A stretch of DNA of 33,228 bases, from positions 1-33,228 of the forward strand of contig JAEUIL010000605.1 of NCBI GenBank assembly GCA_016794255.1, in the 5' to 3' direction. The translations under genes were made by a program, and so were the position numbers. Shown here one piece after another: positions 12,615-14,996 of this stretch (positions are counted from its first letter, which is position 1; each line of letters starts with the position of its first letter). Source of the DNA: Planctomycetaceae bacterium. GTDB taxonomy: Bacteria > Planctomycetota > Planctomycetia > Pirellulales > PNKZ01. A model generated the notes under the pieces. That model ran no database searches, was not told the origin of the DNA, and saw nothing but the letters and a program-made list of their open reading frames with translations.

Positions 12615-14282
12615 CTATTTCCGACCGCGCACCGCTTGCCAATACTTGAGTCCGGGAAAGAAAAAGCACCCGGCCGAAACGACGCCAAAGAGCGTGATGC
12701 CAAACGGGATTTGCTGGCGTTGCATGTACGCCATGACGAACGCCGTCAGAAACAAGGCCGCGGCTTGAATGTAAAATCGGCCGGTCAAGATACCCGCTTT
12801 GATGGCGAACATCGCGCCGTTGACGACGCCCAACACCGGCGACAAGGTCAACACCGGAAAGCCGAGAATCATCTCGACGACGTACAACGACGCGATCGAG
12901 ATCATGCTGCCGGCCCAAACGTGAGCAATCTGCCGCTCGACGAACGTGACGGGGCCCGCGCGATGACGCAAAGCCCAGAAGATCGCGGCCCACGCCCCGA
13001 GGCCGGCGGTCCAGAGCGCCAAGTAGGGCCAAGGCGAAGAGACACCCGACCATTGCATCGCGTTCGTAGCCACGCAGACTCCGAGCAGCGCCAGGCTGTG
13101 CCACATCCACAGCAGCCCCCAATTTTCGAGCACCGTGGCATGATGCGTTTCGCGAAACCAACGGGCGATCACCTGCGTGAACACGCCCGAGCGGGCCGCG
13201 ATCGGCTCGTCGTGCAGAAACGCCTCGAGGTCCTCGGCCAACTCACCCGCCGTCGGGTACCGCAACTCGGCCGGCTTTTGCAGGCACTTAAGGGCGATCA
13301 TCTCGAGCTCTAAATCGGCGCGTGGATTCACGAGCCGCGGGGGCAATGGTTCCTGTTCGAGCACCAGCAGCACCGTGTCGACCGCAGTCGCGGCTTGAAA
13401 CGGGGGTCGGCCGGTGAGCATGTGGTACAGAATCACACCCAGGCTGTAGACATCGGTGGCGGGACCGAGTTTTCCCCGCGCGCCGGCGGCTTGCTCGGGA
13501 GCCATGTACGCCGGCGTTCCCAAGACCGCGCCGGACATGGTGAGTTGCACGTCGTCTTCGAGCCGTTTGGCAAGCCCGAAGTCGCTGACATGCGGTCGTC
13601 CGTCGCGATCGATGAGAATGTTCGACGGCTTCAGATCGCGATGCAGCACGCCGCGATCATGCGCATACTGAACCGCGCGACAGACGGGAGCCAGCAGCCG
13701 AGCCGCCTCGTGCGCTCCGAGCGGACCGTCGGTCAACCGCCGCGCGAGTGTGCTGCCGGAGACATACTTCATGGTGAAATAGGCTTGGCCCGCTTGCTCG
13801 CCGACATCGTACACCGGCACGATATGCGGATGATCGAGTCGCGCCGCGGCTTGGGCTTCGGCCGCAAACCGGGCCAGATCGGCCTGCGACGCCCACGCCC
13901 CGCCGCGGAGCATTTTCAGAGCGACGGTCCGATCCAGCATGCGTTGCCGGGCCTTGTAGACCACGCCCATGCCGCCTCGGCCGAGCTCGGCGAGCAGTTC
14001 GTAGTCGCCGAACTGCTGGGGAAAGACCGGCGGCGAGAAGTCGCCCGAGGGGTTCGACGACTCGGCATCGCTGGAGTGCGGCAAGGTAGGCAGATCGTCG
14101 TCGAACCGGCTCCCCGCACAGTTGGCAACGAGCATGGCCCCCCATAGTTGCCGCAGTTCTTCGGCCAACTCGGGATGCGCACGGCAGACCGACTCGATCT
14201 CGGTCGGCTCACCCGCCGCCATCTGGTTCAGCAGTTGATCGAGCAGCGCGGCTAGTTGCTCATCGCGTTCGTCGGGACTCAC
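12615..14282 (-). CDS. Hanks-type Ser/Thr protein kinase with multi-TM C-terminal domain
   Basis: Motifs LGRGGMGVVY, VALK, HRDLKPSNIL, DFG, GTPAYMAPEQ and DVYSLG. About 6 hydrophobic helices at the C-terminus. Confidence 0.95.
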   Translation of the reverse strand: MSPDERDEQLAALLDQLLNQMAAGEPTEIESVCRAHPELAEELRQLWGAMLVANCAGSRFDDDLPTLPHSSDAESSNPSGDFSPPVFPQQFGDYELLAELGRGGMGVVYKARQRMLDRTVALKMLRGGAWASQADLARFAAEAQAAARLDHPHIVPVYDVGEQAGQAYFTMKYVSGSTLARRLTDGPLGAHEAARLLAPVCRAVQYAHDRGVLHRDLKPSNILIDRDGRPHVSDFGLAKRLEDDVQLTMSGAVLGTPAYMAPEQAAGARGKLGPATDVYSLGVILYHMLTGRPPFQAATAVDTVLLVLEQEPLPPRLVNPRADLELEMIALKCLQKPAELRYPTAGELAEDLEAFLHDEPIAARSGVFTQVIARWFRETHHATVLENWGLLWMWHSLALLGVCVATNAMQWSGVSSPWPYLALWTAGLGAWAAIFWALRHRAGPVTFVERQIAHVWAGSMISIASLYVVEMILGFPVLTLSPVLGVVNGAMFAIKAGILTGRFYIQAAALFLTAFVMAYMQRQQIPFGITLFGVVSAGCFFFPGLKYWQAVRGRK

Positions 14283-14296
14283 AGGCTCGACTCATC
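14248..14296 (-). repeat. Direct repeat copy B (vestigial sigma 3' end plus functional kinase start)
   Basis: Minus strand GATGAGTCGAGCCTGTGAGTCCCGACGAACGCGATGAGCAACTAGCCGC, 36/49 ungapped identity to 14948-14996. Confidence 0.8.
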
Positions 14297-14324
14297 GGAC
14301 TTCGGTCGGTTCGGTATCCAGGCG

Positions 14325-14353
14325 AGGTTACGATACAGCAGGTATGTTGTCGA
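14325..14353 (-). promoter_or_regulatory. Candidate sigma70 promoter for the kinase
   Basis: Minus strand TCGACA-N17-TAACCT, with the -10 ending about 42 nt upstream of the kinase GTG. Confidence 0.45.
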
Positions 14354-14379
14354 GCGCCTTTGGCTCGCCGCACAGGCCT

Positions 14380-14425
14380 GGTTTGAACAAGTTGAACCAC
14401 CTTCAAACCGGAATTACAATTTGTA
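14380..14425 (+). promoter_or_regulatory. TA operon promoter with overlapping palindromes
   Basis: TTGAAC(14392-97)-N17-TACAAT(14415-20). Inverted repeat GGTTTGAA-N14-TTCAAACC around the -35 and TACAA-T-TTGTA over the -10. RBS GGAGGAG at 14445. Confidence 0.65.
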
Positions 14426-14454
14426 GATCATTGCAACCACCAGCGGAGGAGCCG

Positions 14455-14661
14455 ATGGCCACTGACGTGCCGATGCTGACCGACAAGCAGATCGCCGCCG
14501 AAGCACTCGGCCGGATGCCCGAGACTGCGACCTTGGCGGAAATCAGTGAAAGGATGGCCATCCTGGCGGGCCTCGACCGCGGGCAGCGAGATATCGATGC
14601 GGGGCGGGTGGTTAGCCAAGAAGAAGCCAAGCAGAGGTCGCGGGCGTGGACTGGGTCGTAA
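14455..14661 (+). CDS. Putative antitoxin (68 aa)
   Basis: Strong RBS. C-terminal RGQRDIDAGRVVSQEEAKQR..W pattern typical of RelE/ParE-associated antitoxins. Overlaps the toxin start. Confidence 0.8.
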   Translation: MATDVPMLTDKQIAAEALGRMPETATLAEISERMAILAGLDRGQRDIDAGRVVSQEEAKQRSRAWTGS

Positions 14662-14948
14662 TCTGGTCCGAATCAGCACTCTTGGCTGCCGAAGCAGCAG
14701 TCCGGCACATTGCCGAGCAGTCTCCGGTCGCCGCGGAGCAGGTGCGTGCTGCCTTGTTCGCAGCGACGGATGTCCTCGCCCAGTTCCCTGAGATCGGTGC
14801 AATGTACGAGGGGGACGAATGTGGTCGGACGCGGGAGATCAACTGCTATCGGTATCGCATTTTCTATCGCGTGAGACCCGTTGAGCGTCGGGTTGACATC
14901 ATCTTGTTATGGCACTCAGCCCGGCAAGAGCCGCAACTACCTTCCTAG
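14646..14948 (+). CDS. Type II toxin, RelE/ParE family
   Basis: 100 aa with VIWSESA...HIAEQSPVAAEQV...LAQFPEIG...REI..YRYRIFYRV...V.I..LWHSAR. Confidence 0.88.
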   Translation: MDWVVIWSESALLAAEAAVRHIAEQSPVAAEQVRAALFAATDVLAQFPEIGAMYEGDECGRTREINCYRYRIFYRVRPVERRVDIILLWHSARQEPQLPS

Positions 14949-14996
14949 CGGCGAGACGCTCGTCACGTTCGGCTTCGCTCACGGACTCGACTCGTC
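14948..14996 (-). repeat. Direct repeat copy A (functional sigma 3' end plus vestigial kinase start)
   Basis: Minus strand GACGAGTCGAGTCCGTGAGCGAAGCCGAACGTGACGAGCGTCTCGCCGC. Ends exactly at the toxin stop codon. Confidence 0.8.

Follow-up and report, generated by a model that had tools for sequence, protein, structure and literature searches.

A minimal ParE-type toxin-antitoxin cassette, probably inserted with a long target duplication, at a sigma factor-kinase gene junction of a planctomycete

A toxin-antitoxin cassette between two copies of a gene junction

The 33,228-nucleotide contig JAEUIL010000605.1 of a Planctomycetaceae bacterium (assembly GCA_016794255.1; the whole stretch analysed, here called the window, whose positions we use throughout) carries a small toxin-antitoxin gene pair on its forward strand. 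The pair lies between two genes of the opposite strand, which encode an extracytoplasmic function (ECF)-type sigma factor and a Ser/Thr protein kinase, and it is bracketed by two copies of a 49-bp direct repeat, each of which contains a sigma gene end and a kinase gene start (Table 1).

Table 1. Features of the locus, in window positions, and host-gene duplications beside related cassettes, by locus
Feature	Position	Strand	Details
Ser/Thr protein kinase, 555 aa	12615..14282	-	GTG start 14282-14280; Pkinase PF00069, E 1.2e-51
Left copy of putative 49-bp target duplication	14248..14296	-	live kinase start (codons 1-12); sigma relic DESSL* (last five codons and stop) at 14279-14296
Cassette leader	14297..14454	+	promoter 14392-14420; GGAGG ribosome site before antitoxin
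Antitoxin gene, 68 aa	14455..14661	+	overlaps toxin start by 16 nt
ParE-family toxin, 100 aa	14646..14948	+	GTG start; TAG stop 14946-14948; PF05016 ParE_toxin
Right copy of putative 49-bp target duplication	14948..14996	-	live sigma end DESSP* (stop 14979-14981); dead kinase start (GTG 14982-14980, MSEAERDERLAA)
ECF-type sigma factor, 212 aa	14979..15617	-	Planctomycete-specific subfamily 1; TIGR02984, 206.2 bits against a cut-off of 183.75
Dihydrofolate reductase (DHFR) start duplication	L061		49 nt, 88%
DHFR start duplication	L077		67 nt, 95.5%
DHFR start duplication	L109		60 nt, 88%
DHFR start duplication	L090		decayed
RpiB start duplication	L104		first 90 nt, 88%
Aldehyde dehydrogenase end duplication	L070		57 nt, 84%; last 57-70 nt of gene

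ParE toxins poison gyrase. The toxin of the window matches the ParE_toxin profile over positions 1-88 of 89 (E 2.7e-14; 54 bits, cut-off 23), and its relatives, found on short contigs, are 100 aa long and 64-83% identical to it. The gene call in the protein collection, P0001, is 88 aa long with a shorter N-terminus; as all close relatives have 100 aa, the GTG at 14646, which overlaps the end of the antitoxin gene, is likely the true start. The antitoxin matched no Pfam or NCBIfam family at E <= 0.01 and was not placed in a recognised ParD/ribbon-helix-helix (RHH) or Phd family. Its nearest Atlas clusters are labelled ‘putative addiction module component’ (scores 0.88-0.90), which we take as a lead only. 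By manual count, an antitoxin homologue lies directly upstream of a toxin homologue in 41 of the 84 loci that we fetched. A structural model of the toxin-antitoxin complex scored 0.84, against 0.00 for the best control, passing a mark attained by 58 of 80 solved complexes and, among 110 mismatched pairs, by 2; between runs, 87% or more of the contacts were shared, and the predicted local distance difference test (pLDDT) of the partner was at least 85. The model supports binding of the antitoxin to the toxin, although the pass may reflect likeness only, since complexes of ParE type have already been solved. By the profile match of the toxin and this modelling, the pair looks functional.

The leader holds a sigma-70-like promoter, TTGAAC-17-TACAAT, the one site that the promoter scan returned (shuffle mean, 0.3). 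Its -35 box and the ribosome site are common to the closest cassettes (L036, L037 and L039), among which similarity runs from the -35 box to the toxin stop. Positions 14297-14386 have no recognisable origin, and neither the genome nor the fetched loci contain another match to the leader. Both cassette genes (14455-14948) lie inside the repeats, and the insert has a GC fraction of 0.596, compared with 0.615 for the window. No mobility gene is present in the 651 bp, and the neighbours within ~4 kb are housekeeping genes (MCH, a DtxR-type repressor, a MoxR ATPase and ThiF). The five neighbouring genes that we scanned include no recombinase, the window holds no tRNA, and of the 25 inverted-repeat pairs listed among 62, none links the two cassette ends. 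A transposon or insertion sequence was rejected for lack of a transposase gene and, in the pairs listed, of a terminal inverted repeat, as well as for the 49-bp length of the duplication. An integrase-mediated island was rejected on the neighbour and tRNA scans and because the longest exact run shared by the copies, read from their alignment, is 8 bp.

We searched positions 13000-16500 (3.5 kb) for repeats with ungapped +1/-1 scoring and dinucleotide-preserving shuffles. The longest direct repeat in this region is the 49-nt pair 14248-14296/14948-14996, with a spacing of 700, a spacer of 651 bp (14297-14947) and 73% identity (36/49 by direct count); the TAG stop of the toxin supplies, with its G, the first base of the right copy. 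It is also the best self-match of the region, with a score of 23 that none of 200 shuffles reached (mean 14.8, standard deviation 1.5, maximum 22). Gapped local alignment of the 200-nt flanks scored 24, which was attained by 0 of 500 shuffles (mean 9.4, maximum 16). Beyond the repeat ends, gapped alignment of both sides gave similarity at chance level, with 174 and 134 of 500 shuffles attaining the flank scores, and an extension of the repeat was rejected.

Read on the minus strand, the right copy carries the real end of the sigma gene, which overlaps in a GTGA with a dead kinase start. The frame of this dead start continues antisense through the 3' end of the toxin gene for 27 codons, down to a stop at 14899. 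In the left copy, a relic sigma end overlaps in a GTGA with the real kinase start, MSPDERDEQLAA, so that the DESSL* relic functions as the 18 nt ahead of the kinase start. No start codon occurs in the 44 open codons that precede DESSL*, and thus no upstream open reading frame (ORF) remains to couple kinase translation. An initial annotation, made from the window alone, had described the repeat pair with its 36 identities and 700-bp offset, the two GTGA overlaps, six synonymous differences, a 651-bp insert and the abutment on the toxin stop. All of this was recovered by the repeat search, the direct count and the minus-strand reading, and the match proved significant against shuffles as it had proposed to check. 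Its view that transposase, integrase and terminal inverted repeats are lacking was likewise borne out by the neighbour scan and the inverted-repeat list. Its copy labels were swapped relative to coordinate order, the ‘copy A’ with the real sigma end being 14948-14996.

A bare repeat of such score is not rare in real sequence. Scanning the 6.67-Mb genome at offsets of 100-1100, we found 1302 segments scoring at least 20; 195 were single-offset candidates (score at least 22, offset at least 300), of which 49 did not lie within one open frame. With 49 comparable repeats in the genome, the case stands on the position of the repeat and its match to orthologous junctions, not on its score. Candidates inspected by eye comprised tandem paralogues (pilin-like, ClpP-like and KaiB-like) and a repeated palindromic element. 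The initial annotation had also raised the prospect of further cassettes of this kind in the genome; none was seen, in that by-eye inspection of ORFs revealed no second toxin-antitoxin pair among the repeat candidates listed on 27 contigs. Some of the direct repeats of the scan are accounted for by a recurrent element that translates as CAMSTS.WTCV...KHAHADV.MAH and occurs on contigs C116 (~1884-2578) and C511 (~2-1151) of the same genome.

The junction in relatives and in a related strain

The sigma factor also matches Sigma70_r4_2 and Sigma70_ECF in Pfam, and with the TIGR02984 cut-off passed, the window pair fits the type in which an ECF sigma gene is directly followed by a Ser/Thr kinase gene. 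A sigma match was found in 54 of 61 related genomes, the own genome counted, the best one outside it being 73% identical; a further sigma protein, P0151, has 95% identity. We compared the 29 best sigma loci of relatives, all from other genera, at the level of gene order and protein motif. Kinase orthologues adjoin the sigma gene in these relatives: the kinase is adjacent in 24/29 loci, with a 4-nt ATGA/GTGA overlap of sigma stop and kinase start in 13, gaps of 1-31 nt in 6 and other DNA of 190-1150 nt in 5, and the two genes are on separate contigs in the other 5. Twelve of the 13 overlaps were recognised by code or alignment start, and that of L027 by reading an ARDELLA motif in the overlapping frame. 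The cassette or its toxin was present in 0/29 loci, and a tandem sigma-kinase pair in none. A MoxR gene was upstream of sigma in 0/29, and wider synteny was uninformative.

Behind a leader that varies in length, a motif close to ERDERLA is common to the kinase N-termini of 120 relatives, and the dead peptide after the sigma stop of the window carries the ERDERLA motif exactly where orthologues begin their kinase. Together with the overlaps and short gaps, this supports the notion that sigma and kinase were ancestrally coupled by a stop/start overlap. The initial annotation had suggested as much, and had held that the cassette is an insertion, for which an empty site with direct overlap would be the counterpart; the 13 overlapping junctions, all without cassette, provide it at the level of gene order and protein motif. 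The five loci with other DNA between the genes showed no junction duplication, their best scores of 8-14 being within the shuffle range. In some relatives the junction is occupied by other genes, none with a junction duplication. At L014, an unrelated 140-aa gene begins at about base 2136 in an ATGA overlap with the sigma stop. L029 and L030 (bases 2117-3180) have a 120-130-aa hydrophobic ORF after sigma, and L029 has a 251-aa ORF in addition.

Contigs assembled from other sequencing runs bear on the integrity of the locus. In run X3, which comes from another study, a 1288-nt contig (record 21) covers 14111-14932 with 69 differences and 15016-15399 with 18 differences. As it spans the kinase start, the cassette and sigma, a related strain that is ~92-95% identical has the cassette between the same genes. 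In run X1, positions 14432-14896 and 14901-15082 are covered by contigs without any difference from the window. Among the contigs of runs X1, X2, X3 and X8, none has sigma joined directly to kinase; since rare forms are lost from contigs, this is silent on excision. Coverage of the locus has gaps in X1, X2 and X8, to which we attach no meaning. An origin by chance similarity or by chimeric assembly is barely credible. The 49 comparable repeats of the genome speak for chance, but the shuffles did not attain the observed scores, and the dead start has the orthologous motif at the orthologous place. A chimera, which the initial annotation had named as a danger, is excluded by the independent X3 contig and contradicted by the identical X1 contigs.

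Related cassettes at duplicated gene ends

Among 401 genomes of the order, 5, the own genome counted, have a match to the toxin, with none above 40% identity. The fetched loci include 80 metagenome loci; no sigma or kinase homologue lies beside the cassette in any of the 84. For each pair, we compared the 700 nt upstream with the 120 nt downstream in search of direct repeats scoring at least 21. Of the 72 evaluable ParE loci, 8 have such a repeat: the window, L039, L061, L070, L077, L090, L104 and L109. The same geometry applied to 2712 gene ends of the window's own genome gave 12, in 6 of which a copy begins near the stop. This difference is significant (Fisher 1.3e-8, or 4e-5 when counted as 5 events of 69), with the qualification that the control gene ends come from one genome and the toxin-antitoxin loci from many metagenomes. 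L044 escaped the scan through a frameshift in its toxin gene, and its repeats were found by BLAST. L098 (score 18) has the appearance of chance similarity between two different genes and was not counted.

The same insertion architecture recurs in these related ParE cassettes. The host genes were named with Pfam. At the DHFR site, the first 49-75 nt of the gene are duplicated, a dead copy precedes the cassette, and the toxin stop supplies the TGA where it overlaps with the live start codon in an ATGA. At L104, the frame of the dead RpiB copy closes in an ATGA overlap with the antitoxin start, and at L070 it is a gene end that is duplicated. In the DHFR, RpiB and aldehyde dehydrogenase loci, the downstream copy begins between 5 nt before and 11 nt after the end of the toxin stop. 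We found no recombinase on the contigs of related cassettes that were read, and no core sequence common to their repeats and those of the window. The identity of the copies in these cassettes runs from 95.5% down to 84%, a series expected if copies begin identical and then decay, with the window at 73% as an older member. The pair at L104 (570-1078) looks degraded: its antitoxin frame is interrupted by a stop, and the match to the toxin, in a shifted frame, begins only at residue 16.

Does this enrichment mean that the cassettes target gene junctions, as the initial annotation had hinted? The count of 8/72 against 12/2712 is what targeting would give, but a survival filter would give the same picture: in tightly packed genes, only target-duplicating insertions would survive, so that the enrichment at gene termini can be explained without targeting.

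The pairs at the DHFR site (L061:1362-1980, L077:822-1465, L109:1951-2586 and L090:610-1200) have the same leader and are inserted after about codon 22. The 5' 300 nt of DHFR are 72-89% identical between hosts, yet the toxins are only 49-55% identical, with the exception of the L090/L109 pair at 86%. By reading, we also noted derived bases common to the dead and live copies within one locus (ATT in L109, GGT in L090). The whole is suggestive of gene conversion, or of cassettes being exchanged in a fixed DHFR slot. The same observations would suit a scheme in which the cassette spreads among relatives as a circle, consisting of cassette and one repeat, that enters an empty junction by homologous recombination; a single crossover would recreate the repeats, and the window would represent a late, now immobile stage. 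By construction, such a circle explains why a host repeat abuts the toxin stop, and a life cycle of this kind is proposed, in the sections cited, for restriction-modification units (Furuta, Abe and Kobayashi, 2010, PMC2853133). We regard it as distinctly improbable for the window. It leaves the first insertion unexplained, the window repeats are now too diverged to recombine, and no circle or empty-site read was seen, nor a sigma-kinase contig in the four runs, which is weak evidence given that contigs drop rare forms.

Two further loci have flanking repeats of another kind. At L044, two copies of a self-complementary element of ~110-140 nt (3458-3588 and 4229-4368; fold energy ~ -117 to -120 kcal/mol), which are not host gene ends, flank the pair with the frameshifted toxin. 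These elements may be like repetitive extragenic palindromes (REP), miniature inverted-repeat transposable elements (MITE) or attC sites. The contigs of L039 and L036 are 98-99% identical, with a segment of ~850-910 nt swapped upstream of the same pair (L039:143-1055, L036:132-978); of the two, only L039 has a direct repeat flanking the pair (254 nt, 97%; 713-966 and 1902-2155).

Origin of the duplication and comparison with known systems

The comparisons above establish that the junction is duplicated, that relatives have it without insert, by gene order and protein motif, that a related strain carries the cassette, and that related cassettes repeat the architecture. From these, we consider it probable that the locus records an old insertion, accompanied by a long target duplication, of a minimal type II toxin-antitoxin cassette of ParE type, made up of its own promoter, the 68-aa antitoxin and the 100-aa toxin, and terminating at the toxin stop. 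The cassette would have entered antisense into the 4-nt overlap of sigma stop and kinase start in the ECF-sigma/Ser-Thr-kinase operon, and 49 bp of target, from the fifth-last sigma codon through the stop to kinase codon 12, would have been duplicated. Sigma would thereby have retained its own end in the right copy, and the kinase its own start and the preceding 18 nt in the left copy; this relic is best seen as the initiation region of the kinase, which would explain its retention. Purifying selection on the half in use, with drift of the other half, may then have brought the copies to 73% identity. With no exact run above 8 bp between them, they are unlikely still to permit precise excision through homologous recombination, and the cassette would be fixed in place. 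The event itself, presumably old, may have followed an illegitimate route, based on a break or a template switch, without a dedicated recombinase. As a result, translational coupling of the kinase would have been lost, and transcripts from sigma would have to cross the cassette antisense to reach the kinase.

Several points weigh against this reading. Differences between the copies fall on 8/15 third codon positions and on 5/32 first or second positions (Fisher 0.013), and a drift model, which allows the used half silent changes only and leaves the unused half free, reaches a best joint probability of 0.042. This third-position pattern hints, weakly, at constraint on both copies. Indels occur in the dead DHFR copies of L061 and L090 but not in the dead halves of the window. 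In the X3 strain, window positions 14933-15015, with the final codons of toxin and sigma and the right repeat copy, are replaced (83 bases by 82 letters) by sequence that gives no alignment at 80% identity, between flanks that are 92-95% identical. Furthermore, the empty site is known from other genera, at the level of gene order and protein motif; the DHFR-site loci L061, L077, L090 and L109 are one event, not four; the enrichment has a control of different make-up, as stated; and the insertion mechanism is described as unknown even for restriction-modification systems in the sections of PMC2853133 cited here.

Some of these points would be accounted for by a foreign or element-borne junction. 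Here, the remnant of an integrated element, or DNA of another lineage, would have brought its own sigma-end/kinase-start junction, and the copies would have diverged as working genes in different genomes before they met, as in gene-end replacement at phage attachment sites. The third-position bias, the drift model being only marginally tenable, and the lack of an indel in either dead half fit this alternative, as do the amino-acid differences in the kinase part, which are all at positions 3, 4 and 9, variable among relatives, with R6, D7, L10 and A11 kept. The unalignable right-copy region could likewise represent different alleles. We nevertheless hold a foreign junction to be unlikely. Neither the 651 bp nor the neighbouring genes contain an integrase, a tRNA or a relic of an element. 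The short exact run and the missing common core speak against it, as do the related cassettes: they occupy three host genes that are unrelated to one another, their repeats vary in length from 49 to 90 nt, and the contigs read show no recombinase. Both copies have a four-residue leader before ERDE, which is rare among the 120 kinase N-termini listed and is found in P0031, the closest kinase protein (92% identity), which begins VSPDERDEQLAV; this unusually short leader makes the copies close kin. At position 9, the dead copy has R, as do the family consensus and P0032, a 78% relative, and the live copy and P0031 have a derived Q, so that the ancestral-looking R in the dead copy fits simple in-place descent. 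Of the ‘duplicated or replacement junction’ put forward initially, the duplication thus stands as a 49-bp copy; a replacement from outside is not needed, drift being rejected only marginally.

Purifying selection in both copies would also be explained if the locus were the remnant of two tandem or paralogous sigma-kinase operons, with most of the first kinase and the second sigma replaced and 12 and 5 codons left of them. This is very improbable. The genome has one close sigma copy, the next best being 36% and 26% identical, on which ground we rejected a paralogue origin; none of the 29 loci of relatives holds a tandem pair, similarity does not extend beyond the 49 bp, and chance would have had to place the two break points within 31 and 15 nt of gene ends.

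Nobusato et al. reportedly described insertion with long target duplication for restriction-modification gene complexes in 2000 (Gene 259:99). The mode is set out for restriction-modification systems by Furuta, Abe and Kobayashi (2010, PMC2853133), whose cited sections report repeats longer than 30 bp (46-423 bp) without other mobile genes, some of them overlapping the 3' ends of host genes, propose a virus-like cycle of insertion, amplification and release for these units, and suspect double-strand breakage. The cited part of Mruk and Kobayashi (PMC3874152) repeats the mode for restriction-modification systems only. For chromosomal toxin-antitoxin pairs, horizontal transfer, alone or within islands, is all that reviews state in the parts cited here (PMC7167474). 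In a literature search that stopped short of full texts, we did not find this mode reported for type II toxin-antitoxin systems. As it has been described for restriction-modification systems, it is not a wholly new route; known for these addiction modules, it appears to be new for type II toxin-antitoxin systems.

Long target duplication is defined in the cited sections of PMC2853133 by a complete addiction unit inside the repeats, an insert of less than 20 kb without any other mobile-element gene, a duplication of more than 30 bp, and a single, unbroken occurrence of the repeated sequence in a genome that lacks the insert. In the window, toxin and antitoxin are both inside the repeats, the 651-bp insert has no other gene, and the duplication is 49 bp; for the last criterion, gene order and protein motif agree in 13 loci with overlap and 6 with a short gap, of the 29 from other genera. 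Like the restriction-modification insertions, this is a small addiction unit without transposase or integrase, with repeats above 30 bp that vary in length (46-423 bp there, 49-90 bp here) and of which some overlap host gene ends. Unlike them, the cargo is a type II toxin-antitoxin pair, for which a double-strand-cutting activity is not directly available; the window repeat is far more diverged, at 73%, and spans a translationally coupled stop/start overlap; and its empty site is known only from other genera.

A bolder idea, which we rate as quite unlikely, is that ParE cassettes are minimal self-mobilising elements. Trapping of gyrase on cleaved DNA by the toxin would provoke breaks or gyrase-mediated illegitimate recombination, with a long target duplication, preferentially where genes abut; the flanking repeats would permit excision as a circle and re-entry into related genomes, and the toxin stop abutting a host repeat, in four independent events, would mark a defined element end. 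Restriction-modification units, for which a virus-like life cycle is proposed, would offer a parallel.

Compared with ParDE modules, the cassette has a PF05016 toxin above the cut-off, a small overlapping antitoxin gene upstream, its own promoter and a confident predicted complex; unlike them, its antitoxin falls into no Pfam or NCBIfam family. A substitute gene end is carried by prophages and islands whose integration sites are tRNA or protein-coding genes. Examples with tRNA genes are mentioned in the cited part of PMC2853133. As in such integrase-borne replacement, the repeats of the window hold a gene terminus, one copy is used and the other displaced, and the differences are mostly silent; unlike it, the window lacks an integrase, a tRNA and a conserved core, the insert is 651 bp, and related cassettes use unrelated targets. 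With integron toxin-antitoxin cassettes it has in common a minimal cassette and a 3' boundary at the stop of the last gene, but a host coding copy, not a palindromic attC, follows that stop, and there is no integrase. L044 alone among the related loci is flanked by palindromic elements.

The locus thus offers a checkable footprint of toxin-antitoxin movement, to which the related cassettes add at least 3 further independent events: a minimal cassette without recombinase, beside a host-gene terminus that is duplicated over 49-90 bp, so that tightly packed or translationally coupled genes stay intact. As a simple genomic signature, it lends itself to a survey of complete genomes. The link of type II toxin-antitoxin systems to the restriction-modification mode suggests a common, recombinase-independent route for addiction modules. 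For the host, the effect would be an ECF sigma factor uncoupled from its partner kinase, with an antisense, self-promoted gene pair between them. Circumstantial, and given no weight here, is a Ku homologue encoded elsewhere in the genome (C705:6413-6904; PF02735, 123 bits), the presence of which makes end joining of breaks plausible in this host.

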